Sequence record: OL770074.2
Length of the DNA stretch: 64,000 nucleotides
Source: Escherichia phage vB_EcoM-RPN187
Direction: 5' to 3' (one strand)
A program made the translations under genes and the position numbers. Numbering within the stretch: the first letter of the stretch is position 1; each line of letters begins with the position of its first letter. Below, piece by piece: positions 1 through 41,378 of the stretch. The notes under the pieces were generated by a model, which ran no database searches, was not told the DNA's origin, and saw nothing but the letters and a program-made list of their open reading frames with translations.

Positions 1-421
1 ATGATTTGTGCTTGGCGAATTCAAGACCAGCGTAGTTGACAGCCTTAGCTAATTTATTATCAATGACCCATTTACCGGCTTTAGGCACAAACACCGGGCC
101 TTTCTGTTTAGAGAATAGTTTTAAATTCCAGCGACGAAGATCACTGTCGGCTTTAACAAAAGCTGCGTCTAAGTTACTAGCAACAACATCTTGAATATGG
201 CCAAATTTAAGCCCATCAACTTCAATATTTAAATCGGTACGCCAGCGAAGTCCTTCCCAAGCGAAGGCTTTAAAATCAGAAGCTTTTGTGGCTAGATATC
301 GTTCAAGTGGAGCAGTTTTAGGGTCAAAGCCGTTACCGCCACGATAAGTCCACTCGTCCTTATTAATGCCTTGAGCTTTTCCTGCAAAGGCCTCGGCGAT
401 AAATTCTTTATATGTTTTCAT
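1..421 (-). CDS. internal-protein-like protein with capsid-targeting-sequence N-terminus; C-terminal end lies beyond window start
   Basis: Not in ORF track (partial). Hand translation from ATG at 421-419 runs without stop to position 1: MKTYKEFIAEAFAGKAQGINKDEW... N-terminus matches the T4 IP capsid-targeting sequence (MKTYQEFIAE, from memory). Early promoter immediately upstream (452-481). Confidence 0.5.
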   Translation of the reverse strand, partial: MKTYKEFIAEAFAGKAQGINKDEWTYRGGNGFDPKTAPLERYLATKASDFKAFAWEGLRWRTDLNIEVDGLKFGHIQDVVASNLDAAFVKADSDLRRWNLKLFSKQKGPVFVPKAGKWVIDNKLAKAVNYAGLEFAKHKS

Positions 422-451
422 TTTTGTTTCCTTGTTTGTTTTGATAGAGTA

Positions 452-481
452 ATTATACCATATTAATACTTAAGCGTAAAC
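452..481 (-). promoter_or_regulatory. T4-type early promoter (-35 GTTTAC, 18-nt spacer, -10 TATAAT)
   Basis: Minus strand reads GTTTAC (476-481) then 18 nt then TATAAT (452-457), about 30 nt upstream of ATG at 421. Confidence 0.55.
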
Positions 482-484
482 TGT

Positions 485-745
485 TTAAGCTTTACCGCCG
501 GAAATAATTCCGAAGTTGTTAAAATCGTATCCAATATCGTCAACATCTACTTTAGGACTTGTAGCAACATAAGCAATTTCACTACGTTTTGCATAGGTGT
601 TGATTTCTTTACCATCGCCACCTAAGAAAAAATACCCATTACGTTTTAATGAGCCAAAGTCTTCCGCATCACCAATGAAAGCTTTAACTTTAAATTTAGG
701 ACCTTTGGCATCTGCTTCAGCGATAAATTCTTGATACATTTTCAT
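485..745 (-). CDS. internal-protein-like small protein with capsid-targeting-sequence N-terminus
   Basis: ORF track 86 aa; starts MKMYQEFIAE|ADAKG (I-A-E fits gp21 protease L/I-x-E cleavage consensus). ATG verified at 745-743. Confidence 0.55.
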   Translation of the reverse strand: MKMYQEFIAEADAKGPKFKVKAFIGDAEDFGSLKRNGYFFLGGDGKEINTYAKRSEIAYVATSPKVDVDDIGYDFNNFGIISGGKA

Positions 746-751
746 TTTTCC

Positions 752-1165
752 TTAGTAAATTGATTTACCATAGTATTTGTACCAAGTAGGACGTTGAGCA
801 ATTTTTTCATCTAAGCGTGCTTGACTTATCGCAATGGACGCTTCGGACGGGACATAATTATTACGAAATTCGGCAGGGATGTCGGAAATATCCTGGACAG
901 TCGTGTCCTTGATTTTGAAACCACGTTTCAAGCATTCAGCGATTAGCTCGATTTGTCGTAAACGTAAAAATTCGAGTTTGTCGTAAAAGAATGTTACGTG
1001 GCCGGTGCCTAAGATAAATGTTGGAGAGATTTTAAAATCCCTTACACGTTTACCGTTTTGAACATGTTTACGGACTGCACTAAATACACGTGGTAATTCA
1101 CGATACTCAGCCATAAGATGTTGGTCGGTCAGTTCAGAAACAAGTGTTAAATTGATACGAGTCAT
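752..1165 (-). CDS. denV: endonuclease V, pyrimidine-dimer DNA glycosylase
   Basis: [28 protein letters not shown]...[13 protein letters not shown] is near-identical to T4 DenV over its whole length (memory). ORF track begins at a TTG 4 codons upstream; ATG at 1165-1163 with GGAGGAA SD is the likely start. Confidence 0.9.
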
Positions 1166-1223
1166 AATTTCCTCCAAGTAGTTGATGAATGTATAATATC
1201 AAAACCCTTGGAGGAAGTAAACA

Positions 1224-1505
1224 CTATTTTTCTGAAGCGCCTGAAATATATTTTTCAAGACGTTGTTTCATTAGCGAGCCGTTCTTAGCGATTTCTTCCG
1301 GTTTATCGCACATACGCAACAAGGCTTCAAGCTTAACGATATCGCTGGTACGTTCAAATTTGCGAGTATCTATCTTACTAGCAAGTTCAGAAATACGTGC
1401 TAATAGACTTTCAGCTTCAACCAAAGCTGCGCCTAGCTTAGTTGCAAATGTGTCAGTAGCTTCGTTAAGAATAGATTCTGATAAAAATTCACTATATGTT
1501 TTCAT
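1224..1505 (-). CDS. internal-protein-like protein (ipII/ipIII position between denV and e)
   Basis: From ATG at 1505-1503: [10 protein letters not shown]|[10 protein letters not shown]..., 93 aa; ATGA overlap with lysozyme stop (1502-1504). ORF track starts 5 codons upstream at a TTG. Confidence 0.55.
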
Positions 1506-1990
1506 ATATACGCTTTCCAAGTTCCTGTTTTAAATGTTGAGATTACGCGTTTCGCGCGATTAGGTGTCTGACGATACCATTTAGATTGGGCTAGATTTAC
1601 TGCCGCTTCATCCCAACGTTTCTGTTGAAGCATACGAAGAGAATTAGTAAAACCAGCAACGCCTGCTACACCCATTTGGAAGACCATATTGACCAATGCA
1701 CATCGACGAACCGCATCTAAAGAATCATATACCGGTTTAAGTTTAGCATTACCCAAGATTCCTCGAACGGCTTTATCAACGTCTTCATTAAATAGCTTTT
1801 CGGCCTCATCAAGGGTAATTGTACCGTTGCATTTACGTCCGATCATTCTGTCAAGTTCAGCTTTAGCTACGGCTAAAGACGGGTTCTTTGTTACTAAATG
1901 ACCTATGCCAATCGTCCAAAAGCCTTCAGTGTCTTTGTATAAAGACAGTCTAAGACCTTCGTCATTACGAAGCATTTCAAATATATTCAT
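1502..1990 (-). CDS. e: lysozyme (endolysin), T4 e type
   Basis: [32 protein letters not shown]...[18 protein letters not shown]; near-identical to T4 lysozyme (memory). ATG at 1990-1988 preceded by GGAGG; ORF track starts at an upstream GTG. Confidence 0.95.
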
Positions 1991-2029
1991 AATACCTCCC
2001 ACGTTTATAGGAGGTATTTATTACTTATA
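1991..2029 (-). promoter_or_regulatory. hairpin sequestering the e ribosome-binding site, with late-promoter-like boxes
   Basis: Perfect 9-bp inverted repeat aatacctcc (1991-1999) / ggaggtatt (2010-2018); on the mRNA the 3' arm GGAGGUAUU is the SD directly before AUG. Loop contains TATAAACG and TATAAGTA lies at 2022-2029 (minus), resembling the late consensus TATAAATA. Confidence 0.6.
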
Positions 2030-2483
2030 GGAGGGTAGTGAGCACCTTATATAATGATTTGCCCATTACATATTCCCATTGAGAAGGTTTAATTAACGCG
2101 AATGCATCAAATTCAGGAATCTGTCTTCCGTCCGGGAACGTATGATAGGAATTACAAACACTGTTTCTGAATTGCTCGTGCTCTACAGGGATGGTATATA
2201 GGAACAGATGAATATTCTTATTGTCTGAGTAATGATGTTCACCTAGGTCTTTCAGGAAGGCAGGGTCATATTGTGTAAACCCAGTTTCTTCTTCGCATTC
2301 ACGAATAGCGGCTTCGATAGGAGATTCACCGGGCTCGACACGACCTTTAGGAATATCCCACCGATGAGCTAAAGAACCTTTAGGACGAGAACCAGTTACA
2401 CGCCCCATGAATAATTCTTTATCTTCGGTAAGGAAAATAATACCAGCTGATAGTTCTTTCACTTTATTTTTCTTACTCATCAT
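2025..2483 (-). CDS. nudE: Nudix hydrolase
   Basis: Nudix box-like GRVEPGESPIEAAIRECEEETGF; position next to e as T4 e.1/nudE. Start chosen at ATG with ATGA overlap to upstream stop; ORF track starts 5 codons earlier. Confidence 0.8.
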   Translation of the reverse strand: MMSKKNKVKELSAGIIFLTEDKELFMGRVTGSRPKGSLAHRWDIPKGRVEPGESPIEAAIRECEEETGFTQYDPAFLKDLGEHHYSDNKNIHLFLYTIPVEHEQFRNSVCNSYHTFPDGRQIPEFDAFALIKPSQWEYVMGKSLYKVLTTLL

Positions 2484-2971
2484 CTCAAATTCCTGCATTC
2501 GGTAATAAAACGTTCAACTTCATTATTCTTGGCCTTTATCTTGTCTTTATGTTCTTGTAAACTACTTTTAATAAGATTAATAATGATGGCGGCGGTACCG
2601 CCGCCAATGATGCCACCAACAACACTTATGATAATAGATGCTAATAAGATAGCAATAATATCAACAAAACCGAAAGAACTCACCTTAGTACTGAAAAACC
2701 ATATAGATGGTACAAATATAATCCATCCTGTTATCCATTGGCACTTATTGAAAAACTTTTCAAGCTCAGCTTGAGTTGTTCGTATTACTTCATCGATAGG
2801 TTGATATCCATTAATGTATCTGTTCACAATAATACCTGCTGGCTGGTCGATTTTAAATTCTTGGCAAATACGTTTCACTAAGTAGGATGGACATCCTGTC
2901 CATCCTACTGAATAGTATGAAATACCTTCGTTGCCATCGTCTATATTAGACCAATATGTTTTGTTAATCAT
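2480..2971 (-). CDS. hypothetical membrane protein, C-terminal FITECR motif
   Basis: ORF track 163 aa; hydrophobic/Gly-rich segment IIAILLASIIISVVGGIIGGGTAAIIINLI; ends ...ERFITECRNLR. Confidence 0.5.
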   Translation of the reverse strand: MINKTYWSNIDDGNEGISYYSVGWTGCPSYLVKRICQEFKIDQPAGIIVNRYINGYQPIDEVIRTTQAELEKFFNKCQWITGWIIFVPSIWFFSTKVSSFGFVDIIAILLASIIISVVGGIIGGGTAAIIINLIKSSLQEHKDKIKAKNNEVERFITECRNLR

Positions 2972-3657
2972 TACCAGCCTTCCATAGGGAATTCCAGATA
3001 AACTTGGGCGTTGACACGAATTTCATTGGTAATCTTTTTAAATCGGTCTGTATTACGAGATACACGTCCGAACCAACGCCATCCATTACTAATTGCACGA
3101 GAACCAGTGTGCCATGTTTGCCAATCAAACTGAAGAAGAGTACGATCTGGAGCTTCCCATTTCTCTAGTTCACCTTTTTCAATTTTTTCGAGGACTTCTT
3201 TGTGCCACTGGCGATAGATAAGTTCGCCATCAGGAATCTGACTGAACTCTGCAGTTCCTGTTGCAAAATGAGTAGGACACACATCAGCGTTAACAAGACC
3301 AAGAATATGTTCAGAATGGTAACGAGGGTTATCATAATCAGGTTGTCCTGCAGTAATAAAGTGTTGACCAACTGGAATATCAGGGCGTGGTACATCATCA
3401 TGGTGATATCCAGGAATAGCAGGATACCAACCAGGCATCAGCATGTGAACTCGTGAATCAAATACTACATCCGAGTCTTTCCAATCATCAGGAAGATTTT
3501 GGATAAAGCTACGAGTAATTGGGCCACCATTATCAAAAGCAAAATTCAAATCGCAGTTAAAGAACATAGGCTCGTTTTTAATCTGGTTGTTTTTAATCTC
3601 ATGAGCAAAACCACCTACTGCACGAGCTTGGCTATTAAACACTTTAGAACTATTCAT
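2971..3657 (-). CDS. hypothetical protein (HHDD motif; possible metal-dependent enzyme)
   Basis: ORF track 228 aa; ATG verified 3657-3655. Contains PGYHHDD and later His residues (YHSEH, WHTGSR). Fold not assignable by eye. Confidence 0.5.
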   Translation of the reverse strand: MNSSKVFNSQARAVGGFAHEIKNNQIKNEPMFFNCDLNFAFDNGGPITRSFIQNLPDDWKDSDVVFDSRVHMLMPGWYPAIPGYHHDDVPRPDIPVGQHFITAGQPDYDNPRYHSEHILGLVNADVCPTHFATGTAEFSQIPDGELIYRQWHKEVLEKIEKGELEKWEAPDRTLLQFDWQTWHTGSRAISNGWRWFGRVSRNTDRFKKITNEIRVNAQVYLEFPMEGW

Positions 3658-3658
3658 A

Positions 3659-3964
3659 TTATTTTCCTCGGCATTCTTTAATGAAATTTTCTAGATTGGT
3701 AGATTCAATAGCTTTTTTACGAGCTTCTGCGTGTTCTTCTTCAGACAATTTACATTTATAATTGACCCAGGCATTATGGTCGAAACTAGTCGTGGCATAT
3801 AATAACAATGCTCCGACGAATAATAAAAACGGTGATAAGAATACAAAACCAGGAACACCATCCATATCGTAAGCCTTTTGTAATACTGCAACAGAAAGGG
3901 CCGCGTAAAAAGGTGATGCAAATATTGTTAAAAGACCAATTCGGTTGGTTTCTGTTAATTTCAT
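3659..3964 (-). CDS. small membrane protein, C-terminal ENFIKECR motif
   Basis: ORF track 101 aa; two hydrophobic helices (LLTIFASPFYAALSVAVL, FVFLSPFLLFVGALLLYA); GAGGAG SD; ends ...NLENFIKECRGK. Confidence 0.5.
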   Translation of the reverse strand: MKLTETNRIGLLTIFASPFYAALSVAVLQKAYDMDGVPGFVFLSPFLLFVGALLLYATTSFDHNAWVNYKCKLSEEEHAEARKKAIESTNLENFIKECRGK

Positions 3965-3992
3965 ATTATTCTCCTCATGTTTTAATAGGACT

Positions 3993-4022
3993 ACTATAAC
4001 ATAGTCCTATCATGTTGTAAAC
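3993..4022 (-). promoter_or_regulatory. T4-type early promoter embedded in a stem-loop
   Basis: Minus strand GTTTAC (4017-4022), 18 nt, TATAGT (3993-3998); 9-bp inverted repeat ataggacta/tagtcctat (3985-4010) spans the -10 region. Confidence 0.55.
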
Positions 4023-4034
4023 AGTTTTGTGAAG

Positions 4035-4991
4035 TTATTTGAAAGGTTTCACCATATGAAAATTTTCTTTAAACCGTTTGATGTAATCATTTTTGCCGAG
4101 CTTATGATACATAGCCACTACTTCATAATAGTTCTCGTATGCGTACTCACGGAACCAACCAGAGGTGATGCTTGTACAGACCTTTTCCAATGCCATCATG
4201 AAACTGGCTTCAGGGTTAATTTTAAAGTCATTAGGAATCTGAGAACGTTCTAATGCTAGTACACATGATTCTTCGTATACACCGGCCAATTTGACCATTT
4301 CTGGTAATGATTCGAACTTCTCTCGTGAGGTCATGACTTCAGAACCGTCTTTCATATAAAATGTATACGCTGGACGGTCTGTTAGCGCAATGGCTTCATG
4401 AATAGTATCATGGTCATATGTATAGATGTCATCTTTAAAGAACGCACTTTTAGAAGTGTCAAGAACTGGGTGAGCATAGTTCAAGGTTTCTTTCTGGCGT
4501 TTCAGCATAATTTCAGTAAGTTCATCGTTCAGTGTAACACCTTTACCGCGAAGATACTGAATATGGTTCATAGTCTTTAAAAAGAATGGATTATTTTTCT
4601 TGAAACGATGAGACATCTTAATTGCAAGACACATCTCAGGAGTTGCCCAGTAAAACCCGTTCAAACGGTCTTTAGTCAAATTTTTCTTGGCGTATTTTAA
4701 AAGGTCATAAGAAGACGTGAAATCTTCAGGAGTGAGTTCACCGACTAATTCACGGACATTAGTGATTGCCGGAACAATATATGCTTCAAAATGAGTTTCG
4801 CGTCCGTTATGGAAACATTTGAAAACTTGGACACCAGGGTTATCTTGATGAACGTATACACCCATCATTTGATTTTTGAATGCATTCCAAGAACCTTGGT
4901 CTGCAATAAAGTCCCAGTCACTATTTTTGATAGCGTTAGAATCAATAAGACCGTGATAGTGAAGTGCACGAGAACCAATAACTAACATCAT
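4035..4991 (-). CDS. hypothetical protein, 318 aa (possible nucleotidyltransferase-like N-terminus)
   Basis: ORF track; ATG verified with GAGGAAA SD. N-terminus IGSRALHYHGL...NSDWDFIAD loosely resembles the GS...DxD motif of Pol-beta-fold nucleotidyltransferases; spacing is longer than typical. Confidence 0.5.
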   Translation of the reverse strand: MMLVIGSRALHYHGLIDSNAIKNSDWDFIADQGSWNAFKNQMMGVYVHQDNPGVQVFKCFHNGRETHFEAYIVPAITNVRELVGELTPEDFTSSYDLLKYAKKNLTKDRLNGFYWATPEMCLAIKMSHRFKKNNPFFLKTMNHIQYLRGKGVTLNDELTEIMLKRQKETLNYAHPVLDTSKSAFFKDDIYTYDHDTIHEAIALTDRPAYTFYMKDGSEVMTSREKFESLPEMVKLAGVYEESCVLALERSQIPNDFKINPEASFMMALEKVCTSITSGWFREYAYENYYEVVAMYHKLGKNDYIKRFKENFHMVKPFK

Positions 4992-5019
4992 AATATTTTC
5001 CTCGGATTAATTCATTAAC

Positions 5020-5271
5020 TTAAATTTCACGACATGCGATATCATATTCATCCCATAGGTCATCGTGTGAAGCCTCTACTAATGGAACGATTGTACCATT
5101 TATGTCTTCATTATAAGGGCAAATTGTACAGTGTGCATCTTCGAATCGGATGCCTTTGTGTTCAGATTTTTTATAACGCATATCGAATATCTTTGCAAAC
5201 TTTTCACGAGTAATGGTTTTAGCAACCACTTTGGTTCCAACACTTTCGTAATAAATCATTGTGGACTCCAT
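5020..5271 (-). CDS. hypothetical small protein
   Basis: ORF track 83 aa; own early promoter upstream (5288-5317); ATG verified 5271-5269. Confidence 0.45.
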   Translation of the reverse strand: MESTMIYYESVGTKVVAKTITREKFAKIFDMRYKKSEHKGIRFEDAHCTICPYNEDINGTIVPLVEASHDDLWDEYDIACREI

Positions 5272-5287
5272 TTAATTTGATAGGACT

Positions 5288-5317
5288 ACTATAACATAGC
5301 CCTATCTTGTTGTAAAC
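5288..5317 (-). promoter_or_regulatory. T4-type early promoter next to an imperfect stem-loop
   Basis: Minus strand GTTTAC (5312-5317), 18 nt, TATAGT (5288-5293); near-identical sequence to the 3993-4022 promoter. Confidence 0.55.
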
Positions 5318-5321
5318 TGTT

Positions 5322-5519
5322 TTAGCAAGAATAACTAGATGATACCCAGCCTTGAACAGTAATACTATTATTTGATACCGAGATTGCATTCTGGAGATTC
5401 AAACCTGCATTATCTTCAATCCACAATGTAACTTCTTCGCGTTCTTCTGTTGCAATTTGGAACAGGTTTTCTAGGGCAGCTACTGCCGTACGTACAGCAC
5501 AATCCAATTCACGAGACAT
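5322..5519 (-). CDS. small protein, member of tandem paralogue family with C-terminal GWVSSSxxC motif
   Basis: ORF track 65 aa; ends ...TVQGWVSSSYSC; ATG verified. Confidence 0.45.
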   Translation of the reverse strand: MSRELDCAVRTAVAALENLFQIATEEREEVTLWIEDNAGLNLQNAISVSNNSITVQGWVSSSYSC

Positions 5520-5528
5520 ATAGTTTCC

Positions 5529-5801
5529 TTAGCAAGTGTGAGAAGATGCAATCCAACCACCAGTTTCAAGGCTCAGGTTGTAGTCGTATTGGTAAACGTC
5601 AGCCCATTCAGCATAGCCGTTTTTTGTACAACGTTCAAGATCGGCTTTAAGTTGTCCGGGTGAATGATATGTTCCACCCATACCATAAGCTGGATACAAG
5701 TCGAATGTTGTGTTTTGTTTATCAGCAATTTCTTTGGCAGCCTCAATAGCTGCATAGATTTTTGCTACGGCTTCAGCCAGTTCGGTTTGTTCTTTAGACA
5801 T
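5529..5801 (-). CDS. small protein, member of tandem paralogue family with C-terminal GWIASSxxC motif
   Basis: ORF track 90 aa; ...YGMGGTYHSPG...ETGGWIASSHTC; stop runs into SD TAAGGAA of the next gene. Confidence 0.5.
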   Translation of the reverse strand: MSKEQTELAEAVAKIYAAIEAAKEIADKQNTTFDLYPAYGMGGTYHSPGQLKADLERCTKNGYAEWADVYQYDYNLSLETGGWIASSHTC

Positions 5802-5810
5802 AATGATTCC

Positions 5811-6116
5811 TTAGCACAACGCAGAAGACGAAACCCAAGCACCTTCAGTAATAACGTAACCATTACCTTCACGCTTAACATCGCCACCATTATTTTCAAT
5901 TTCATCTTTCATCCACTGGGATACGATTTCACCCTTAGGATAATAAGTACGACCGCTACCATAATCACCTACAGAAAATGATACGGCGTATTGGTCTGCG
6001 ATCTTTGTTGCTTCTTCTTCGATACGTTCAGCTTGATTCAGAAGTTTATAAATTGCATCTGAAGCGGATTTGGCATCATTAAACTCTGGTACTTTAATTT
6101 CAATAATCTTACTCAT
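5811..6116 (-). CDS. small protein, member of tandem paralogue family with C-terminal AWVSSSxxC motif
   Basis: ORF track 101 aa; ...GDYGSGRTYYPKG...TEGAWVSSSALC; ATGA overlap with upstream gene. Confidence 0.5.
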   Translation of the reverse strand: MSKIIEIKVPEFNDAKSASDAIYKLLNQAERIEEEATKIADQYAVSFSVGDYGSGRTYYPKGEIVSQWMKDEIENNGGDVKREGNGYVITEGAWVSSSALC

Positions 6117-6472
6117 TTTCTACATTCCTTAATAAAGTTTTCGATTGTTTCATTTTCACGTCTAGCTAGGAGTTCATTATAACTAATCATTTGAGAAGCG
6201 TAAACCTTTTTATTTTTCTTGTTATGGTTTATAAAATCGTAGTAAAAATAGACTACAGTACAAAATGATGCGATGGATGCAAAGGCTTGGGTATACCGTA
6301 AGTCCTGCCATTGGTCTGTGAATCCACCAGTGTTCCCTATAAATCCTAACACAACGCCGTCAATAAGAAATCCAACTAATCCAAAGGCAAATCCCATGCC
6401 AATACTCATAATAAAAATTAGAATGTTCTCACCAAGAGAAGGCCATACGGTTAAGAGTTGAGGCTTTTGCAT
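6113..6472 (-). CDS. membrane protein, C-terminal ENFIKECRK motif
   Basis: ORF track 119 aa; hydrophobic/Gly-rich segments (ILIFIMSIGMGFAFGLVGFLIDGVVLGFIG); ends ...ETIENFIKECRK. Confidence 0.5.
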   Translation of the reverse strand: MQKPQLLTVWPSLGENILIFIMSIGMGFAFGLVGFLIDGVVLGFIGNTGGFTDQWQDLRYTQAFASIASFCTVVYFYYDFINHNKKNKKVYASQMISYNELLARRENETIENFIKECRK

Positions 6473-6846
6473 CTTATTTCCTTAACGAATTCCATAGCTT
6501 CTTCATATTCGTACTTTTTAACAGCTTCATCATACTGAGCTTGGGCTTTTGCGCACTGAACTTTCCATTCTCTTAATCGGGCTCTATAATGACGTCCTTG
6601 GTGCCAATATCCTACCCAATTAATAGGCATTAATAAAAACGGTACAATAAGTGGTGCGACGAACATTAATGAAAATGCTGCATCAGACGATATAACTTCA
6701 CTAGAATCTAAAACAGCTCCTATAATCATAAAGATTAAAAATGCTAAAGCTAAAATAGGGCCAAATAGTACTTCGTTTGGGATTAATTTACGCTTGTATT
6801 CATACGCCCAGGGCTTAATTGGCATGTATAGGGTTGGCTTTGACAT
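6451..6846 (-). CDS. membrane protein (start uncertain)
   Basis: ORF track 6451..6876 starts at a TTG; first ATG at 6846-6844. Hydrophobic helices (FGPILALAFLIFMIIGAV, FSLMFVAPLIVPFLL); ends ...EFVKEIRCKSLNS. Confidence 0.4.
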   Translation of the reverse strand: MSKPTLYMPIKPWAYEYKRKLIPNEVLFGPILALAFLIFMIIGAVLDSSEVISSDAAFSLMFVAPLIVPFLLMPINWVGYWHQGRHYRARLREWKVQCAKAQAQYDEAVKKYEYEEAMEFVKEIRCKSLNS

Positions 6847-7411
6847 ATTCTCTACATTCCATAATAAATTGCTCAAGGATTAAATTGTTAGTGAAATTAG
6901 GACTAACAACCATGGTTTCATAAAGCGCATCAATAGCACTTAAAGCATCAACTCTTTTAAGCAAAGGCTTGCCTTCATACATAGTTTCAGAATCGACGAT
7001 TAACGTAAAGTAATATTTTTTATTATTGACCAGAACTTCTGTATCAATATAAAACATGTTAGATCTTAAAAGCTTATCTCTAAAACCATAATAATCTTCA
7101 GAGCGTTCGCTGATATATTCCAATTCAGTGTTTAAACAACAAACAGACCACGTAGGAGCAACGAAATCAGTGAATCTAATATCATGGTCTGCAACTAGTT
7201 TAGCAATAGCTCCGATATCATGAATCATAATACCTGGGGCTAATAAAGATTTTCGGTTATTTGCATATTCAGTTGTCTCATAAGAAGACGACCAGTACCA
7301 TTTACGTCCAGTTGCAACATATCGTAATGAATCAACTAAAGACGTAGGTGGATTTACCTTATTTCGGAACTCTTCGAACATTGAGTCAATATCATTATTT
7401 TGGTTTCGCAT
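6815..7411 (-). CDS. hypothetical protein with C-terminal EQFIMECRE motif
   Basis: ORF track 6815..7432; ATG at 7411-7409 with AAGGAG SD is the likely start (MRNQNNDIDSMFEEF...). Confidence 0.5.
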   Translation of the reverse strand: MRNQNNDIDSMFEEFRNKVNPPTSLVDSLRYVATGRKWYWSSSYETTEYANNRKSLLAPGIMIHDIGAIAKLVADHDIRFTDFVAPTWSVCCLNTELEYISERSEDYYGFRDKLLRSNMFYIDTEVLVNNKKYYFTLIVDSETMYEGKPLLKRVDALSAIDALYETMVVSPNFTNNLILEQFIMECREYVKANPIHAN

Positions 7412-7430
7412 GTTAACTCCTTTATTATCC

Positions 7431-7452
7431 AAAAGGAGGACCGGAGTCCTCC
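7431..7452 (-). terminator. intrinsic terminator-like hairpin
   Basis: 7-bp stem ggaggac/gtcctcc with cgga loop (7435-7452); minus strand followed by UUUU; lies 9 nt after the stop of the 7461..8054 gene. Confidence 0.4.
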
Positions 7453-7460
7453 GTATTATT

Positions 7461-8054
7461 TTATTTCAAAGAGTTAATATATTCTTGTACATCAGCAGAA
7501 GTGGTTTCGACACCAGCTGGAGTGCCATTGAACGTTTCAACACGAGTCAGAGTGTCTTCGATATCAACCTTAGTCAGTGCAGCGATTTCAATTACATCGT
7601 CAGCCGTAGAGATACCAAGGGCATTGGCTGCTCGAGTTTCACGAATGTATTCGAGTTTGATTGCCAGGTTCTGACGAGCATCGTCAAGTTCAACCACCTT
7701 ACGAGCAATTTCAATTCGCATAGCAGCGTACCCGTCAGCTTTTGTATTAAGTTGTTCGGCGGTTCGACGATACAGAAGACCAAGCTTAGCATGCATGGTA
7801 ACATCTTGTCCTTCAGCCAGGAGCTTACGAATTTCAAGTTCCTTAGAAGCGGCTTGCTTATTCTTTTCATTAACAAGTTCGCGAATACGTTTTTCTTCAT
7901 TAATAGATTTAACAGAAGCCGTTTTTAGTTCTTTGATTTGGGTAATCAACTTATCTGCGGCTGCGTTATACTGTTCTTCGACAGTCAGATTTTTAGCCAT
8001 AGCAGTACCCAGTTTAGTGCGGATGAATTCAACAAGTTTCTTCAGTGTGTTCAT
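7461..8054 (-). CDS. coiled-coil protein, possibly PspA/IM30-like
   Basis: ORF track 7461..8069; ATG at 8054 with GAAAGG SD. About 197 aa, predominantly helical/charged, resembling PspA by eye only. Confidence 0.45.
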
Positions 8055-8125
8055 ATTATTACCTTTCAATTGGTGGTTTATTATCCAATGAGAGCATTAT
8101 ACTCTGCTCTCAAGAGTTTGTACAC

Positions 8126-8407
8126 TTATTTGTACGAATTAATAATCTCTTCCATTTTATCCAGAACATGGATATCGATTATACGAGGAAGTGCCGAAAG
8201 ATTAGAACCGTCGAAAGATTTAAGGTCTTCCAAAATAATATTTTCAATGGCCTTTAAAGCTTCCGCAGATTCTGATGCAGAATTAAATTCAGGAATTTCT
8301 CCAAAAAGACGTAAGAATGAACCAAAGTATTCTGCGGCGATTTCTTTAGCTTGTTCGATATCAGACTTAAACATTTTGTTTTCCTCATTTGTTGGTGGAG
8401 TAATCAT
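8126..8407 (-). CDS. hypothetical protein
   Basis: ORF track 93 aa; ATG verified with AAGGATGG SD. Confidence 0.45.
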   Translation of the reverse strand: MITPPTNEENKMFKSDIEQAKEIAAEYFGSFLRLFGEIPEFNSASESAEALKAIENIILEDLKSFDGSNLSALPRIIDIHVLDKMEEIINSYK

Positions 8408-8431
8408 ATCACCATCCTTGGCGTTTGTACA

Positions 8432-8935
8432 TCATTTATTTTTAATTTTGCAAATTTTTTCTGCTTCAGCAATTGCAGCGTCAATGATGCTTTGTGCAAT
8501 TTTATTACTAGTTGACCTGGCAATCACACTAAGAACAATTTCTTTTTCTTCACCACCCCAACCCCAAGTCCTTTGTTCGTGGGTACCTTTAACTACAGCT
8601 GAAACTTCAACAGAACGTCCACCATCAGAAGTTTTAACATCTACAACCCAATCACCATCTTTCTCTTCTACCCTTGATTTATCCCAAGAAATACTAATAT
8701 ATGATTCGTTGTCAATAGAAGTCGCCGGGTTTTTCTCTACCGTAAGACCTTCACTTTCCAGCCATTCAATAGTATTTGCGCATAAATCGGAGGAACACCT
8801 CATCGGGAACCGGCAAGATTTTTCACCTTTAGATGCGGCGTTATACATCTTTTCTAAAATACGCTTTTGCACGTTTTTAAAAATAGTTTCAGCAGATTCT
8901 TCAGATTTTTTATTCAGTTCAGTATAAAGACTCAT
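8432..8935 (-). CDS. hypothetical protein
   Basis: ORF track 167 aa; ATG verified with AGGAAA SD; early promoter upstream. Confidence 0.5.
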   Translation of the reverse strand: MSLYTELNKKSEESAETIFKNVQKRILEKMYNAASKGEKSCRFPMRCSSDLCANTIEWLESEGLTVEKNPATSIDNESYISISWDKSRVEEKDGDWVVDVKTSDGGRSVEVSAVVKGTHEQRTWGWGGEEKEIVLSVIARSTSNKIAQSIIDAAIAEAEKICKIKNK

Positions 8936-8963
8936 AACATTTTCCTATGTTGTTGATAAGTCT

Positions 8964-8992
8964 ATAGTATCATGTCCTTAGAAGAAGTAAAC
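8964..8992 (-). promoter_or_regulatory. T4-type early promoter
   Basis: Minus strand GTTTAC (8987-8992), 17-18 nt, TACTAT (8964-8969). Confidence 0.5.
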
Positions 8993-9025
8993 ATCTTTAT
9001 GAAATATTTTTATGCCCTAGATACC

Positions 9026-9052
9026 AAAAAGCCCCAACCGTAAGGAAGGGGC
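9026..9052 (-). terminator. rho-independent terminator
   Basis: gcccc...ggggc stem (9031-9052) preceded on plus by aaaaa, i.e. followed by U-run on minus; just downstream of stop of 9059..9523. Confidence 0.6.
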
Positions 9053-9058
9053 ATTCTA

Positions 9059-9523
9059 TTATTTAATTTGTTTAGCAGACCAGATACGGTCTTTAATAAG
9101 TTTTTGGATATCTTCAACATACTCAAGGCTATGAGCGTGAGGATTATCTTTGAAGCTATGTGCTCGTGCCAGTTTCTGGCCTTCTGTTTTGATTACTAAA
9201 AGCTCTTTAAGAATTGCTTCATACTTAGAAATAATTCCTTTGGCGATATTTTTTTCTTGAGCGGCTTTAGGGTCCGCTTTTGGCGCAGGTGCTTTACCTG
9301 TAGCTTTCTGGAACAATTCACCTGATGCAGCTAGGCTTTTAAAAACTCGGCTAACAGTATTAGCATTAGTAAAACCTTCGGCTTTAAAATCTCTAATAAA
9401 ACGGAAACGTTCTTCATCAGAGGCGTCTTTGTAAGAATATTTACCTGCTCTAATTGCTGCAATCGCAGCGGCTTTTACATCTGAACTAGATTGTTCAGTC
9501 AAAAATTCAGCGTATGATTTCAT
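9059..9523 (-). CDS. internal-protein-like protein with capsid-targeting-sequence N-terminus
   Basis: ORF track 154 aa; MKSYAEFLTE|QSSSD...; Lys/Ala-rich; ATG verified 9523-9521. Confidence 0.55.
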   Translation of the reverse strand: MKSYAEFLTEQSSSDVKAAAIAAIRAGKYSYKDASDEERFRFIRDFKAEGFTNANTVSRVFKSLAASGELFQKATGKAPAPKADPKAAQEKNIAKGIISKYEAILKELLVIKTEGQKLARAHSFKDNPHAHSLEYVEDIQKLIKDRIWSAKQIK

Positions 9524-9567
9524 GTTGCTTTTCCTAAGTTAATTAACTTATCTATTTATTATTATGC

Positions 9568-9595
9568 AAAAAAGCCCCAACCTTTCGGAAGGGGC
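9568..9595 (-). terminator. rho-independent terminator closing the tRNA/stable-RNA transcription unit
   Basis: GCCCCUUCCGAAAGGUUGGGGC followed by UUUUUU on minus; near-copy of the 9026-9052 hairpin. Confidence 0.6.
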
Positions 9596-9602
9596 TATGC
9601 CT

Positions 9603-9905
9603 TGCGGCAACCTTGTCGGGGTTCCACCTGCTAAGGCAAGTGTTTGTACGAAACGCCGGGATTCGAACCCGGTTATTAAGCAGTTGACGCTACTCAATAT
9701 TTTTAAAAGGCCATATCTCGACCATATCCGAACGTTCCGTCAAAAACGCTACTCGGCTTACGGCAAAGATATTTCCTCGAATCGATAATTCTGTGCGCCG
9801 TTTCAGCTGTGATAGTAAAGAACCAGAACACAGTAAAACTGTGGGAGGAACTATACTCCAGGGAACATCAGTCCGACGACTTACCGGTAGCGACCCGGTT
9901 TCTTG
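9603..9905 (-). ncRNA. putative small stable RNA(s) downstream of tRNA-Arg, with tRNA-like T-arm
   Basis: About 300 nt with no credible ORF on the minus strand, between tRNA-Arg and a terminator. Contains a T-arm motif CCGGGUUCGAAUCCCGG (9655-9672) with possible acceptor pairing CGGAACG/CGUUUCG. T4 encodes stable RNA species at the same place (memory). Boundaries not resolved. Confidence 0.3.
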
Positions 9906-9907
9906 TT

Positions 9908-9983
9908 TGGTCGAGGCAGTAGGGGTCGAACCTACGACCTAGGACTTAGAAGGTCCTTGCTCTTCCTTCTGAGCTATGCCTCG
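9908..9983 (-). tRNA. tRNA-Arg (anticodon UCU)
   Basis: Hand-folded: acceptor CGAGGCA/UGCCUCG, D-arm GCUC..GAGC, anticodon loop CUUCUAA, T-arm GUAGG-UUCGACC-CCUAC, CCA encoded. Confidence 0.85.
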
Positions 9984-9987
9984 GATT

Positions 9988-10062
9988 TGGCGGACATGCA
10001 TGGATTCGAACCATGGACCAATTGATTAACAGTCAACTGCTCTACCACTGAGCTACACATCC
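9988..10062 (-). tRNA. tRNA-Asn (anticodon GUU)
   Basis: Hand-folded: acceptor GGAUGUG/CAUGUCC (two G-U pairs), D-arm UAGCUCAGUGGUAGAGC, anticodon loop CUGUUAA, T-loop UUCGAAU, CCA encoded. Confidence 0.75.
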
Positions 10063-10066
10063 AAAT

Positions 10067-10153
10067 TGGTTGGGAGTGATGGAGTCGAACCACCTGAGTC
10101 GCAATGACAATGGATTTACAGTCCACACCGCTACCTCTACGGGATAACTCCCC
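10067..10153 (-). tRNA. tRNA-Tyr (anticodon GUA), long variable arm
   Basis: 87 nt; anticodon stem GUGGA/UCCAU with loop CUGUAAA; T-arm GGUGG-UUCGACU-CCAUC; CCA encoded; 1:72 is a G-A mismatch so the 5' end is approximate. Confidence 0.7.
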
Positions 10154-10162
10154 AAATTAATT

Positions 10163-10237
10163 TGGTGGCCCTGGGTGGAATTGAACCACCATCTGGCGAT
10201 TATGAGTCGCTTGCTTGAACCTTCCAGCTACAGGGCC
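10163..10237 (-). tRNA. tRNA with anticodon CAU (elongator Met or lysidine-type Ile2)
   Basis: Acceptor GGCCCUG/CAGGGCC, anticodon loop CUCAUAA, T-arm GGUGG-UUCAAUU-CCACC, CCA encoded. Occupies the slot of T4 tRNA-Ile in the conserved order. Confidence 0.75.
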
Positions 10238-10238
10238 T

Positions 10239-10314
10239 TGGTGCTGATTGACGGAATCGAACCACCGACCTTCTCATTACAAGTGAGTTGCTCTACCTAC
10301 TGAACTAAATCAGC
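10239..10314 (-). tRNA. tRNA-Thr (anticodon UGU)
   Basis: Acceptor GCUGAUU/AAUCAGC perfect, anticodon loop CUUGUAA, T-loop UUCGAUU, CCA encoded. Confidence 0.8.
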
Positions 10315-10319
10315 AAAAC

Positions 10320-10409
10320 TGGCGGAGGCGATAGGATTTGAACCTATGAGTCGCCGGAGCGACTGCCGGTTTTCAAGACCGGTGCATTAAACCACTCTGC
10401 CACGCCTCC
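10320..10409 (-). tRNA. tRNA-Ser (anticodon UGA), long variable arm
   Basis: 90 nt; acceptor GGAGGCG/CGCCUCC, anticodon stem CCGGU/ACCGG with loop CUUGAAA, T-loop UUCAAAU, CCA encoded. Confidence 0.85.
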
Positions 10410-10411
10410 AG

Positions 10412-10485
10412 TCTCCATACAAGGATTTGAACCTTGGACCTCCTGATCCCAAATCAGGCGCTCTACCAAACTGAGCTACACGGAG
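10412..10485 (-). tRNA. tRNA-Pro (anticodon UGG), CCA not encoded
   Basis: Acceptor CUCCGUG/UAUGGAG, D-arm UAGCUCAGUUUGGUAGAGC, anticodon loop UUUGGGA, T-arm CAAGG-UUCAAAU-CCUUG. Confidence 0.8.
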
Positions 10486-10495
10486 TAAATTAAAT

Positions 10496-10569
<74 letters not shown>

Positions 10570-10574
10570 AAATT

Positions 10575-10661
10575 TGGTGCGAGAAGTGGGACTCGAACCC
10601 ACAAGGAAATCATTCCGCAGCATTTTAAGTGCTGTGCCTTTACCAATTTGACCATTCTCGC
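10575..10661 (-). tRNA. tRNA-Leu (anticodon UAA), long variable arm
   Basis: 87 nt; acceptor GCGAGAA/UUCUCGC, anticodon stem CAGCA/UGCUG with loop CUUAAAA, T-arm GUGGG-UUCGAGU-CCCAC, CCA encoded. Confidence 0.85.
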
Positions 10662-10662
10662 G

Positions 10663-10735
10663 CTGGGAATAAAGGACTCGAACCTTTGCATCCTGGAATC
10701 AAAATCCAGTGCCTTACCAACTTGGCTAATTCCCA
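10663..10735 (-). tRNA. tRNA-Gln (anticodon UUG), CCA not encoded
   Basis: Acceptor UGGGAAU/AUUCCCA, anticodon stem CUGGA/UCCAG with loop UUUUGAU, T-arm AAAGG-UUCGAGU-CCUUU. Confidence 0.8.
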
Positions 10736-10832
10736 ATTATTAACAAAGGCTCTCAAGCAAGAACCCTTGATGATAGAGGGTATTAATCAGTGCGATATGA
10801 GTTAATAATAACAAATAATTCTTAAAGCATAT

Positions 10833-11120
10833 TTACCATTTATGATAATACATATTTACGATGCATTCAAGACCCAAAGGATTCTTGAAAATATCATATT
10901 CAAGAGGACCTTTTTCCGTTTCAATAAAGAAATCAAAGTTAACTGTGTTAAATTTACGGTCTTCCTTTACTAATTTAACTTGAGAAGATGAACGGTCAAT
11001 GTAAACCTTTTCAACTTCAAAACATGTTAAAATGCCATAATCATCAATCAAGGCTTTAGCCGCATCTTGATCATATTTATATCCATTTTCAATGGATGAT
11101 ACTTTCGCATAAAGAATCAT
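10833..11120 (-). CDS. hypothetical protein
   Basis: ORF track 10833..11126 starts at TTG; ATG at 11120 with GAAGGT SD. Confidence 0.4.
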   Translation of the reverse strand: MILYAKVSSIENGYKYDQDAAKALIDDYGILTCFEVEKVYIDRSSSQVKLVKEDRKFNTVNFDFFIETEKGPLEYDIFKNPLGLECIVNMYYHKW

Positions 11121-11122
11121 TA

Positions 11123-11503
11123 TCAACCTTCATCAACAATAGTATGCGTATTGGCATTTACAATTTGCCACCAATCAAAGAGATTAGAACCATACATCAG
11201 TTTGTTTTCATTTTCTTTGATAATATCACGGAGTTCATCTTCAGTGGCGGCTTTCGCGATTAAATCAGCATATCCACCACGAGGATAATAATTATCACCT
11301 GCAAAAAGTAAAAAGTTTGGTTTAATGTTATTGAACTCTTCAAGAGTAATAACTTTTCCTGACGGTTGAACAATCTCTACATATTTATATCCCAATTTTT
11401 GAGCAGCATCTACTGCTTCAAGCAAAGTATCATGAGCCCATCCAATTTGACAACCTGGCTTTTCAGATGGATTAGCCTGATAATCCGCATACACTTTGTA
11501 CAT
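11123..11503 (-). CDS. hypothetical protein
   Basis: ORF track 11123..11542 starts at TTG; ATG at 11503 with AAAGGTGA SD gives 126 aa (MYKVYADYQ...). Confidence 0.4.
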   Translation of the reverse strand: MYKVYADYQANPSEKPGCQIGWAHDTLLEAVDAAQKLGYKYVEIVQPSGKVITLEEFNNIKPNFLLFAGDNYYPRGGYADLIAKAATEDELRDIIKENENKLMYGSNLFDWWQIVNANTHTIVDEG

Positions 11504-11504
11504 T

Positions 11505-11690
11505 CTATTCACCTTTAGAAATTTTATCCATAACGATAGCAATTAAACCAATTAAAAATGCTACTACAAGTGAAAACACATTTTCTGCTGTAGTTAATAA
11601 TCCGCATATAAATCCAACAAACATTGAAAAACTAAAAGCGGAAGCAGAAATTGCAATAGCAACATTTCGAATTAATTCACAACGTTTCAT
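11505..11690 (-). CDS. hypothetical small membrane protein
   Basis: ORF track 61 aa, largely hydrophobic; ATG verified; early promoter upstream. Confidence 0.35.
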   Translation of the reverse strand: MKRCELIRNVAIAISASAFSFSMFVGFICGLLTTAENVFSLVVAFLIGLIAIVMDKISKGE

Positions 11691-11718
11691 TTTATTCTCC
11701 TCTGTAGTTGATAGGGTA

Positions 11719-11748
11719 ATAGTATCACTACCCCATCTAAAAGTAAAC
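11719..11748 (-). promoter_or_regulatory. T4-type early promoter
   Basis: Minus strand GTTTAC (11743-11748), 18 nt, TACTAT (11719-11724). Confidence 0.5.
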
Positions 11749-12021
11749 TCATTTTAAATAAATTGCGTATTTTTTATAGCCACCAGGCTCGTGTCGAAGA
11801 CCCTTATCATTAGCAAAACGCTCAATGTTGTTAATTTGATTCTGGTCAAGTTCAGAGATGTCAAACACGAAATAGTTACGTTTGTTACCAACTGTTACAT
11901 AGTCAGTTAAATCAATACCATATAGGTAATTGATGTCAGCAATCATAGTCTTGACAGCTTTGCTAATTTTTACTTTTTCGTTAAAAGTAGCTTCATTGAT
12001 AAATTCTTTAAATGTTTTCAT
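11749..12021 (-). CDS. internal-protein-like small protein with capsid-targeting-sequence N-terminus
   Basis: ORF track 90 aa; MKTFKEFINE|ATFNE...; ATG verified 12021-12019. Confidence 0.55.
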   Translation of the reverse strand: MKTFKEFINEATFNEKVKISKAVKTMIADINYLYGIDLTDYVTVGNKRNYFVFDISELDQNQINNIERFANDKGLRHEPGGYKKYAIYLK

Positions 12022-12052
12022 TTTATTTTCTTAATTAATTTTGATAGGACCT

Positions 12053-12082
12053 ACTATAACATAGTCCTATCAACATGTAAAC
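12053..12082 (-). promoter_or_regulatory. T4-type early promoter beside a stem-loop
   Basis: Minus strand GTTTAC (12077-12082), 18 nt, TATAGT (12053-12058); inverted repeat taggac...gtcctat at 12044-12070. Confidence 0.55.
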
Positions 12083-12084
12083 TA

Positions 12085-12348
12085 TTAAATACCTGCTTCG
12101 CGCTTAACATAAGCAACATAAGCTTCGATAGCTTTCTTGCTGGTAATTTTTACCTGACCGCGTCCGTTGCCTTCTTTAGAGTTTTTCTTAACAACTACAT
12201 TACCATCTTTAACACCCCATACATGGACATAAGTACCGATGTTTCGGTCGTAGAACATTGCATGGTCGTTGTTGTAAGAGAATGATTCGTAGTTCTCTGT
12301 CAGAGTAGAAGATTGAGATTCAGCGATAAATTCTTTATACGTTTTCAT
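12085..12348 (-). CDS. internal-protein-like small protein (ipI position) with capsid-targeting-sequence N-terminus
   Basis: ORF track 87 aa; MKTYKEFIAE|SQSS...; ATG verified 12348-12346; lies between tRNA cluster and 57B as ipI does in T4. Confidence 0.55.
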   Translation of the reverse strand: MKTYKEFIAESQSSTLTENYESFSYNNDHAMFYDRNIGTYVHVWGVKDGNVVVKKNSKEGNGRGQVKITSKKAIEAYVAYVKREAGI

Positions 12349-12382
12349 TTTATTTCCTTGAGGTCGTTTATTTGATAGGATG

Positions 12383-12412
12383 ATAGTAACACACCATCAT
12401 CCTTATGTAAAC
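12383..12412 (-). promoter_or_regulatory. T4-type early promoter embedded in a stem-loop
   Basis: Minus strand GTTTAC (12407-12412), 18 nt, TACTAT (12383-12388); inverted repeat aggatgat/atcatcct around the -10. Confidence 0.55.
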
Positions 12413-12425
12413 TGTTTTGTGAAAA

Positions 12426-39806: not shown

Positions 39807-41378
39807 ATGAAATTTAATATCTTAAGTTTGTTTGCTCCATGGGCAAAAATGGACGAACGTGATTACAAAGACCAAGAAAAAGAAAATTTAGAATCTATCA
39901 CCGCACCAAAATTGGACGACGGCGCTAAAGAATATGAAGTATCTGAAAATGAAGCACAGCAAACATATAATGCTATGTTTCAGAGAATGTTCGGTAGTCA
40001 AGAACCAGGGCTCAAATCAACCCGTGAATTAATCGATACGTATCGAAATTTGATGACGAACTATGAAGTGGATAACGCGGTCTCTGAAATAGTTTCCGAT
40101 GCTATCGTGTATGAAGATGATACAGAAGTCGTTTCTATAAATTTAGACAACACAAAATTTAGTCCAAATATCAAATCAATGATGTTGGATGAATTTAATG
40201 AAGTGTTAAATCATTTATCTTTCCAACGTAAAGGTTCAGATCATTTTAGACGTTGGTATGTGGATTCTCGAATTTTCTTCCATAAAATTATTGACCCTAA
40301 ACGCCCTAAAGAAGGTATTAAAGAGCTTCGTCGTTTAGACCCACGTCAAGTTCAATATGTCCGTGAAGTTATTACAACCACTGAAGCCGGTGTTAAAATA
40401 GTCAAGGGTTATAAAGAATATTTCATTTATGACACATCACACGAATCTTATGCTTGTGATGGTCGCATATATGAAGCCGGCACAAAAATAAAAATCCCTA
40501 AAGCCGCGATTGTTTATGCCCATTCTGGTTTAGTTGATTGTTGTGGTAAAAATATCATTGGTTATTTGCATCGGGCTATTAAGCCGGCGAACCAATTAAA
40601 ACTTCTTGAAGATGCCGTCGTAATTTATCGTATTACTCGTGCTCCTGATCGTCGTGTATGGTATGTTGATACAGGTAATATGCCTTCAAGAAAAGCAGCC
40701 GAACATATGCAACATGTTATGAATACGATGAAAAACCGTATTGCGTATGATGCTACTACAGGCAAGATTAAAAACCAGCAGCATATTATGTCGATGACCG
40801 AAGATTATTGGTTACAACGACGTGATGGTAAAGCGGTAACAGAAGTTGACACATTACCAGGTGCAGATAATACTGGAAATATGGAAGATGTACGTTGGTT
40901 CCGTAATGCGCTTTATATGGCTTTACGTATTCCTATTACCCGTATTCCAAGTGACCAAGGTGGTATACAGTTTGATGCTGGTACTTCTATTACACGAGAT
41001 GAATTGACATTTGGTAAATTTATTCGTGAGCTGCAACATAAATTTGAAGAGATATTCCTAGACCCGCTTAAAACTAATTTAATTCTTAAAGGAATTATTA
41101 CAGAAGATGAGTGGAATGATGAAATAAATAATATTAAGATAAAATTTCATCGGGATAGTTATTTCTCGGAATTAAAGGATGCTGAGATTCTGGAGCGTCG
41201 CATTAATATGCTTCAGATGGCCGAACCATTTATTGGTAAATATATTTCTCACAGAACAGCTATGAAAGATATTCTTCAGATGTCTGACGAGGAAATTGAA
41301 CAAGAGGCTAAGCAAATTGAAGAAGAGTCGAAAGAGGCTCGTTTCCAAGACCCCGACCAAGAACAAGAGGATTTTTAA
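39807..41378 (+). CDS. 20: portal vertex protein gp20
   Basis: 523 aa (T4 524); synteny. Confidence 0.95.

Follow-up and report, generated by a model that had tools for sequence, protein, structure and literature searches.

Six small genes with a T4-type capsid targeting sequence in a Mosigvirus genome: candidate internal proteins and a possible third locus

What do six small genes encode that begin with the same ten residues and then have nothing in common? The question is raised by one end of a 64,000-base stretch of the genome of Escherichia phage vB_EcoM-RPN187 (sequence record OL770074.2; the whole stretch is called the window here), where six minus-strand open reading frames (ORFs) share the N-terminal pattern MK[TMS][YF]xEF[IL]xE. 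In phage T4 the decapeptide at the start of the internal proteins (IPs) is named the capsid targeting sequence (CTS), and suppressor analysis assigned its targeting determinants to residues 4 and 7 and its processing by gp21 to residues 8 and 10; aspartate at position 10 blocks cleavage, glutamate being required, and the first ten residues of IPIII are enough for loading foreign proteins into heads (PMC9026906). We propose here that the six genes probably encode internal proteins of the T4 type, which would be packaged and processed by gp21. The function of the CTS, its cleavage, the injection of the mature proteins and the inhibition of GmrSD by Ip1-3 are taken from published T4 work, and our own results cover how the sequences are built, whether the determinant residues are kept, which protease and scaffold genes are present, how the proteins fall into families and what marks of gene gain and loss remain. 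The motif scan covered all six frames of the window. For brevity each gene is called by the coordinate at which it starts (421, 745, 1505, 9523, 12021 and 12348).

The motif occurs exactly six times in the window, always on the minus strand within 1-12348, always at the start of an ORF and always preceded by an AGGAAA-type ribosome-binding site (Shine-Dalgarno sequence); it did not occur once in 100 shuffles of the window, and two looser motifs recovered no further ORFs from the 64 kb. Beyond residue 10 the bodies have no significant mutual similarity (best body-against-body BLASTP among the six, E=0.18). Both results agree with a first-pass annotation of the window, made from the sequence, which had listed these six ORFs and described their bodies as completely divergent. 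Residues 1, 2, 6, 7 and 10 are invariant (M1, K2, E6, F7 and E10), residue 4 is tyrosine or phenylalanine, residue 8 is isoleucine or leucine, and variation is otherwise confined to positions 3, 5 and 9. Residues 8-10 read IAE, IAE, LSE, LTE, INE and IAE, with glutamate at position 10 throughout, and all six copies thus carry the [I/L]-x-E processing site together with the aromatic residue 4 and Phe7 of the targeting determinant. The copies also differ by synonymous codons (ACA/ACG, GCC/GCT, GAA/GAG, TTA/TTG, TAT/TAC). The variable positions avoid the mapped determinants and synonymous changes occur at the DNA level; conservation therefore acts on the peptide, and on precisely the determinant positions. 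IPII and IPIII of T4 begin MKTYQEFIAE and IPI begins MKTFKEF, and judged by these residues the shared decapeptide is the T4 CTS, an identity that the first-pass annotation had given correctly. It is predicted to be disordered and to stand in front of folded bodies, and the predicted mature products (8-20 kDa, pI, i.e. isoelectric point, 6.3-9.7) resemble the T4 IPs.

The genome encodes both a T4-type prohead protease and a T4-type scaffolding core (Table 1). The cleavage contexts of gp23 (FLTE/AEIGGD) and gp24 (LLRE/STT) are unchanged relative to T4, in which they are established gp21 cleavage sites. By analogy with T4, each of the six proteins would be packaged, cleaved and injected: the precursor would be tethered through its 10-residue N-terminal CTS to the gp22/gp67/gp68 scaffolding core during prohead assembly, the serine protease gp21 would cut after Glu10 within [I/L]-x-E and release the mature protein in the head, and at infection the mature protein would be carried out of the head along with the DNA, to work in the host cytoplasm ahead of any phage gene expression.

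Are these proteins new? Window positions 1-12400 are 99.4% identical to Escherichia phages AV113 and AV112, members of Mosigvirus (Tevenvirinae, RB69 group), and more than 1,100 T4-like genomes match at lower identity; the sequence thus places the source phage in Mosigvirus, and four of the six proteins fall into families that PHROGs already calls internal head or internal virion proteins (Ip3, Ip9, Ip5-like and RB69 ORF125c). The protein of the 421 gene is the orthologue of IPIII, a classical head protein of T4. Its body is 92% identical to that of T4 IPIII (phrog_5341 'internal virion protein', E 2.6e-117), its CTS is of the same type, its promoter is likewise of early type, and its full length in AV113 is 192 aa. 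The 745 protein is 93% identical to RB69p125 (ORF125c; RefSeq name internal head protein) and is matched by 217 phage records. The 1505 protein, with 496 matching records, belongs to the same 90% cluster as RB69 ORF127c, and homologues at 47-50% are annotated 'ip5'; a second LNE site lies at residues 13-15, after the CTS. The 12021 protein is identified by similarity as Ip9, being 87% identical over 100% of its length to UniProt Q38376 'Ip9' of RB15 and 79% identical to 'ip9' of VR25; within this family differing CTS variants are joined to the same body. A polymorphic ipI locus of T-even phages encoding Ip4-Ip13 was reportedly described by Repoila et al. in 1994. The class has thus been described since then, and what we have here is a correct rediscovery of it. 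The earlier label of 'candidates for new injected anti-defence proteins' accords with the accepted view of the class, in which Ip1-3 block GmrSD, and overstated the novelty for the four proteins in known families.

The remaining two families had escaped such naming. The 12348 protein is matched by only 35 phage records, of which the annotated ones among the matches listed are 'hypothetical' or carry a phage-name label, and a word-indexed search of 5.8 billion proteins found only its own, single 90% cluster. The 9523 protein is matched by 511 phage records, the annotated ones among the matches listed all being 'hypothetical protein'. Pfam and NCBIfam hold no family for any of the six proteins, and a sequence search of the PDB with three of the six gave no match. 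Structure prediction, as advised by the first-pass annotation, was run on the 9523 protein and Ip9 with AlphaFold2 (predicted local distance difference test, pLDDT, ~75); Foldseek found no significant match to either model in the PDB, and BFVD returned uncharacterised family members only. The five bodies other than that of the 421 protein have no similarity to Ip1, Ip2 or Ip3 (best E 0.17) and are therefore not filed among the GmrSD inhibitors Ip1-3; with Ip4-13, sequence was compared through database names only.

The 9523 gene lies between homologues of the stable RNA genes rnaC/rnaD and e.8-like genes, where T4 has a 285-bp gap and RB69 has a different CTS gene (ORF149c, MKTYAEFLTE), and no T4 homologue of the protein was found. 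This position is outside both described Ip loci, one next to 57B and the other around e/denV, which accommodate the other five genes. A 32-nt terminator hairpin is repeated on both flanks of the 9523-family gene in the source phage, moha and HY01. T4 has a single hairpin at that site, followed by the tail of the downstream copy. With one hairpin there and two here, the gene is a cassette bounded by repeated terminators, and the T4 arrangement bears the mark of gene gain or loss through recombination between the two copies.

The family extends well beyond Mosigvirus. Homologues in Tequatrovirus (~75% identity) begin MKSYAQFLNEAVLNEA; those of Klebsiella T4-like phages (36-39%), which likewise lie downstream of the tRNA genes, begin MITFNDILAE or MKFKEFLAE; and more distant representatives begin MLKFNEFLAE, MLEYSEFLKE or MISFNEFVDGNLITE. 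A CTS-like N-terminus thus persists across genera down to ~36% identity. The N-domain (AGKYSYKD...RDMKAEGF) is conserved, and the C-domain is replaced in the Klebsiella forms. In the AlphaFold2 model of the 9523 protein (pLDDT 75.7) the CTS is disordered and is followed by a three-helix domain, which a Lys/Ala/Pro linker joins to a helical hairpin. An exhaustive hidden Markov model search found 10 representatives only, nearly all of them apparent members (two listed matches were uninspected). In Yersinia phage fD1 (phiD1), g140 is a full-length homologue of 157 aa that begins MKSYTQFLNE and lies between the upstream gene g141 and the e.8-like g139, tRNA genes being unannotated in that record; it differs in never having been called an internal protein and in a duplicated LNEA in its CTS region. 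As a separate observation, P0083, a 94-aa protein from one metagenome-assembled contig, is a natural chimera: its beginning is the N-terminal part of the trna.3-like protein, and fused to this are the final 31 residues of the 9523 family. In window coordinates 11123-11542 is linked to 9059-9150, which implies the existence of a variant phage lacking the entire tRNA cluster and the greater part of the CTS gene.

Two of the bodies also exist without the CTS. A stand-alone 72-aa ORF of the siphovirus UTEC10 (Kagunavirus) matches residues 18-90 of Ip9 at 51% identity (E 2e-20), and the C-terminus of a large Kuttervirus protein (>950 aa by annotated coordinates) matches them at 35% (E 7e-6). For the 12348 protein, residues 17-82 have a counterpart of 66% identity in Dhakavirus IME08, an unannotated ORF that lies next to motA, starts MKTLNINSFFYN and has no CTS. 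The simplest reading of these relationships is that small accessory proteins existed first and gained the CTS later, and the existence of CTS-less homologues suggests that the bodies work in the cytoplasm by themselves, as T4 Ip3 does when its CTS is missing (PMC9391042).

We propose with moderate confidence that the region downstream of the tRNA/rnaC-rnaD cluster may constitute a third, undescribed Ip locus; that the 9523 family may be a widespread unrecognised injected protein, present in >500 T4-like genomes, with a conserved three-helix N-domain and an exchangeable C-domain, which T4 apparently lost by recombination between the flanking hairpins; and that at least two bodies may be cytoplasmic accessory proteins turned into pre-delivered ones by acquisition of the CTS. 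The absence of the gene from T4 would explain why it was missed.

How unusual is such a collection of genes? The first-pass annotation had set at least six genes here against three in T4. Six were indeed counted in the window, and the contrast was overstated as far as the genus is concerned. RB69 carries at least seven CTS genes in the same region (ORF123c, 124c, 125c, 127c, 149c, IpI and ORF156c), and six copies are therefore not unusual; moha has five in the region examined, and T4 has its three ip genes. A scan of the remaining 104 kb of AV113 added one more CTS ORF only, an IpII orthologue directly left of the window start (AV113 133274-133576; L010 4175-4477; 100 aa, 94% identical to T4 IPII), and the genome probably carries seven CTS genes in all. 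Six or seven CTS genes per genome is the norm in Mosigvirus. In the comparison with other T4-like genomes that had been recommended at the outset, the repertoire differs between the close relatives moha, RB69 and the source phage.

The map against T4 is altered in places. The T4 order e-ipIII-ipII-denV is replaced here by e-[1505]-denV-[745]-IpIII-(IpII). The 1505 gene therefore takes the place of ipII/III on the T4 map, and the two genes beyond denV are displaced. Beside 57B, the ipI locus has two genes here and one in T4. The genes had previously been assigned to the T4 ipI and ipII/III positions and to two extra sites, left of denV and left of the tRNA genes. The ipI locus and the site beyond the tRNA genes stand; the ipII/III placement was off, and the 1505 gene lies right, not left, of denV in window coordinates. 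The only genuinely additional site relative to T4 is the one downstream of the tRNA genes.

If the six proteins do reach the head, what would they do afterwards? Silas et al. found that Ip1, Ip2 and Ip3 are inhibitors of GmrSD type IV restriction, each directed at a variant of its own, T4 Ip3 acting on the GmrSD of ECOR17, and described two Ip loci (PMC12373910). The DNA of RB69, which contains arabinosyl-hydroxymethylcytosine (arabinosyl-hmC), is still cut by GmrSD enzymes. By the precedent of T4 Ip1/Ip2/Ip3 the mature proteins would inhibit host nucleases that attack sugar-modified hmC DNA, each unrelated body being suited to a different enzyme variant. The 421 protein is expected, from its similarity, to use the same mechanism as T4 Ip3, and an anti-defence role for the other five bodies is on balance probable by analogy. 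A rival reading holds that the proteins are packaged and cleaved as described but are mostly generic internal head proteins, either basic counter-ions organising the head DNA or ejection aids, and not effectors. Four of the six mature forms are indeed basic (pI 8.9-9.7), and in T4 heads lysines of the IPs are in contact with phosphates of the DNA (PMC3012670). However, the other two mature forms are near neutral (pI 6.3-6.4), all three T4 IPs are specific inhibitors, and the CTS-less homologues of two bodies are ordinary small ORFs in phages without this head system. In addition, the bodies are unrelated and turn over fast between close relatives, which fits an arms race better than a structural role. 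We therefore regard purely generic head proteins as unlikely.

Several observations do weigh against the view that the six are processed and injected effectors. For the source phage, packaging and N-terminal processing are predicted here from sequence, and a single search of the literature for virion proteomes of Mosigvirus yielded nothing useful. Neither fold nor family gives a hint of function for any body (Pfam, NCBIfam, PDB, Foldseek). Among 15 GmrSD groups, Ip4-10, including Ip9, had no reproducible target (PMC12373910), a result that also favours the generic alternative, and the term 'GmrSD inhibitor' may not generalise. In the 9523 protein the predicted cut is followed by glutamine, not by alanine or serine. 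Its homologue fD1 g140 was listed as particle-associated in an LC-MS/MS analysis of purified virions (at least 2 peptides, mean spectral count at least 2), which speaks for packaging, but the list is permissive, with 113 of 277 gene products, including rIIB, called particle-associated. Finally, none of the six genes has an exact TATAAATA late promoter directly upstream. T4 ipI, ipII and ipIII likewise lack an exact TATAAATA; their promoters are of early type, and the late promoters of e lie upstream of them. The missing late promoter was therefore not used as an argument against packaging, and late supply would have to rely on read-through or on early promoters that stay in use, which is apparently the case for T4 ipI-III.

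The expression signals lead to a further alternative. Each of the 421, 12021 and 12348 genes is preceded by a T4-early-type promoter of its own. The 745 and 1505 genes lack one and directly follow denV (at 7 nt) and e, respectively. The lysozyme gene e and the 1505 gene are translationally coupled through an ATGA overlap, which had been noticed before and can be read directly from the sequence. The 9523 gene is preceded by the terminator hairpin and a AATAAATA sequence. A 71-nt DNA repeat (D1) spans the ribosome-binding site and CTS at four gene starts, and a 48-nt early-promoter cassette (D2), with a palindrome between its two hexamers, occurs five times (440-487, 3981-4028, 5276-5323, 12041-12088 and 12371-12418), three copies standing before CTS genes and two before unrelated genes (starts 3964 and 5271). 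In the Ip9 gene the promoter, the 5' untranslated region (UTR) and the first seven codons match T4 ipI, and then divergence is complete. Such sharing might suggest that the N-terminus, at least in the two unannotated genes, is a hitch-hiking by-product of a recombining cassette of promoter, ribosome-binding site and start, with no role in packaging or processing; we consider this very improbable and reject it, since D2 copies without the CTS and three CTS genes without D2 (745, 1505 and 9523) make promoter and CTS separable, the amino-acid-level conservation falls exactly on the mapped determinants, the CTS-like motif survives across genera in the 9523 family, and a member of that family is particle-associated in fD1. 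The first-pass annotation had itself named such a by-product as what would undo its proposal, and the repeat analysis did not bear it out. What the shared flanks fit is exchange by recombination at conserved flanks, which has been reported for these loci, not a functionless N-terminus. For internal proteins of the T4 type, the repertoire would then turn over by cassette exchange, with promoter, 5' UTR and CTS as the 5' flank and terminator hairpins as the 3' flank.

The resemblance to individual known systems is close in some respects and limited in others. T4 Ip3, to which the 421 protein is so similar, inhibits the two-gene GmrS1/GmrSD2 type IV system of Escherichia coli ECOR17. Its gene lies between e and denV, whereas the 421 gene follows denV, in a Mosigvirus whose type member RB69 has arabinosyl-hmC and not glucosyl-hmC. 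The 12021 and 12348 genes occupy the same ipI locus as the gene for T4 IPI*, an injected inhibitor of the GmrSD of E. coli CT596. In contrast to IPI*, however, there are two genes for one, their bodies have no similarity to it, and their CTS is of the 10-residue IPII/III type and not of the 19-residue IPI type. RB69 has ORF125c and ORF127c at the same positions around denV and e as the 745 and 1505 genes, and has ORF123c and ORF124c where the source phage has IpIII (plus IpII in AV113). RB69 ORF127c (L014 2423-2704) has a degenerate CTS, MKTYMNFYQNLSLNE, whereas the near-identical body of the 1505 protein has a canonical one, and comparing the two may show, as an experiment of nature, which share of the CTS is required. 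The ejection proteins of phiKZ/SPN3US, which are cleaved by a prohead protease, and the P1 Dar anti-restriction proteins are alike in head loading and delivery with the DNA and, for P1 Dar, in anti-restriction purpose; their sequences, targeting signals and proteases are unrelated, and the likeness is one of analogy and not of family membership.

The left part of the window follows a T4-like order on the minus strand (IpIII, denV, e, nudE, the e.2-e.8 region, ten tRNA genes, trna.2-4, the ipI locus and 57B), and plus-strand late genes including 20, 67, 68, 21, 22, 23 and 24 lie further right. The ten tRNA genes (window 9569-10735; among them Asn, Tyr and Met) compare with eight in T4. Window 9569-9911 takes in 4 nt of tRNA-Arg and is 88.5% identical to the T4 stable RNAs rnaC/rnaD and their flanks, for which Rfam holds no family. 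In the e.2-e.5 region (window 2480-7432, minus strand) five neighbouring ORFs, several of them predicted membrane proteins, share a C-terminal motif (ERFITECRNLR, ENFIKECRGK, ENFIKECRK, EFVKEIRCK and EQFIMECREY), and a short DNA repeat (D5) covers two of these ends; the motif could mark a paralogous family or a conserved junction element. Within window 5322-6116, also on the minus strand, lie small paralogous ORFs, three in tandem (65, 90 and 101 aa), each of which ends GW[VI][SA]SS..C, with a 48-nt repeat (D7) at their junctions.

Table 1. Positions in the window of the CTS genes, their signals and the neighbouring features
Feature	Position	Strand	Remarks
IpIII (Ip3) orthologue	1-421	-	N-terminal 140 codons, cut by window edge; CTS MKTYKEFIAE
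86-aa internal protein, RB69 ORF125c type	485-745	-	CTS MKMYQEFIAE; phrog_2667 'internal head protein'
93-aa internal protein, RB69 ORF127c/Ip5-like	1224-1505	-	phrog_3499 'internal head protein'
Lysozyme gene e	1502-1990	-	Phage_lysozyme match; stop 1504-1502 overlaps start of the 1505 gene (ATGA)
154-aa CTS protein, unannotated family	9059-9523	-	CTS MKSYAEFLTE; phrog_2280 ('unknown function'); downstream of tRNA/rnaC-rnaD cluster
Ip9, 90 aa	11749-12021	-	CTS MKTFKEFINE; phrog_7673; own early-type promoter
87-aa CTS protein, rare unannotated family	12085-12348	-	CTS MKTYKEFIAE; phrog_13302 ('unknown'); first gene of ipI locus, beside 57B
Early-type sigma-70 promoter TTTACG-17-TATAAT	452-480	-	In front of IpIII orthologue
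Early-type promoter TTTACA-17-TATAGT	12053-12081	-	In front of Ip9; D2 cassette copy
Early-type promoter TTTACA-17-TACTAT	12383-12411	-	In front of the 12348 gene
Terminator-like GC hairpin and T-run	9564-9595	-	Directly upstream of the 9523 gene, 3' end of rnaC-like region; upstream copy of flanking repeat (D9)
Second copy of hairpin	9021-9052	-	Directly downstream of the 9523 gene
C-terminal-motif ORF	2480-2971	-	
C-terminal-motif ORF	3659-3964	-	
C-terminal-motif ORF	6113-6472	-	
C-terminal-motif ORF	6451-6876	-	
C-terminal-motif ORF	6815-7432	-	
gp67	41378-41608	+	GP67, E 1.5e-20; 62.5% identical to T4
gp68	41608-42033		Plus strand; forms the core with gp22 and gp67
gp21 prohead protease	42033-42680	+	Peptidase_S77, E 2.6e-107; 87% identical to T4 gp21
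gp22 scaffolding core protein	42714-43526	+	T4_CASP, E 1.5e-89; 77% identical to T4 gp22

The current understanding of the internal-protein system is left unchanged by these findings, and the new elements are modest: two families annotated only as hypothetical (9523 and 12348), a third locus and evidence for capture of the CTS. Among the counter-defence tools of T-even phages the internal proteins act earliest, and targets are known for only three of them. Against this background, 'candidate internal protein' can replace 'hypothetical' as the label of both families, the third locus can be searched in other genomes, and the repertoire of seven, made up of the Ip2 and Ip3 orthologues and five further bodies, offers candidates ready to be screened against type IV enzymes and other first-line defences.

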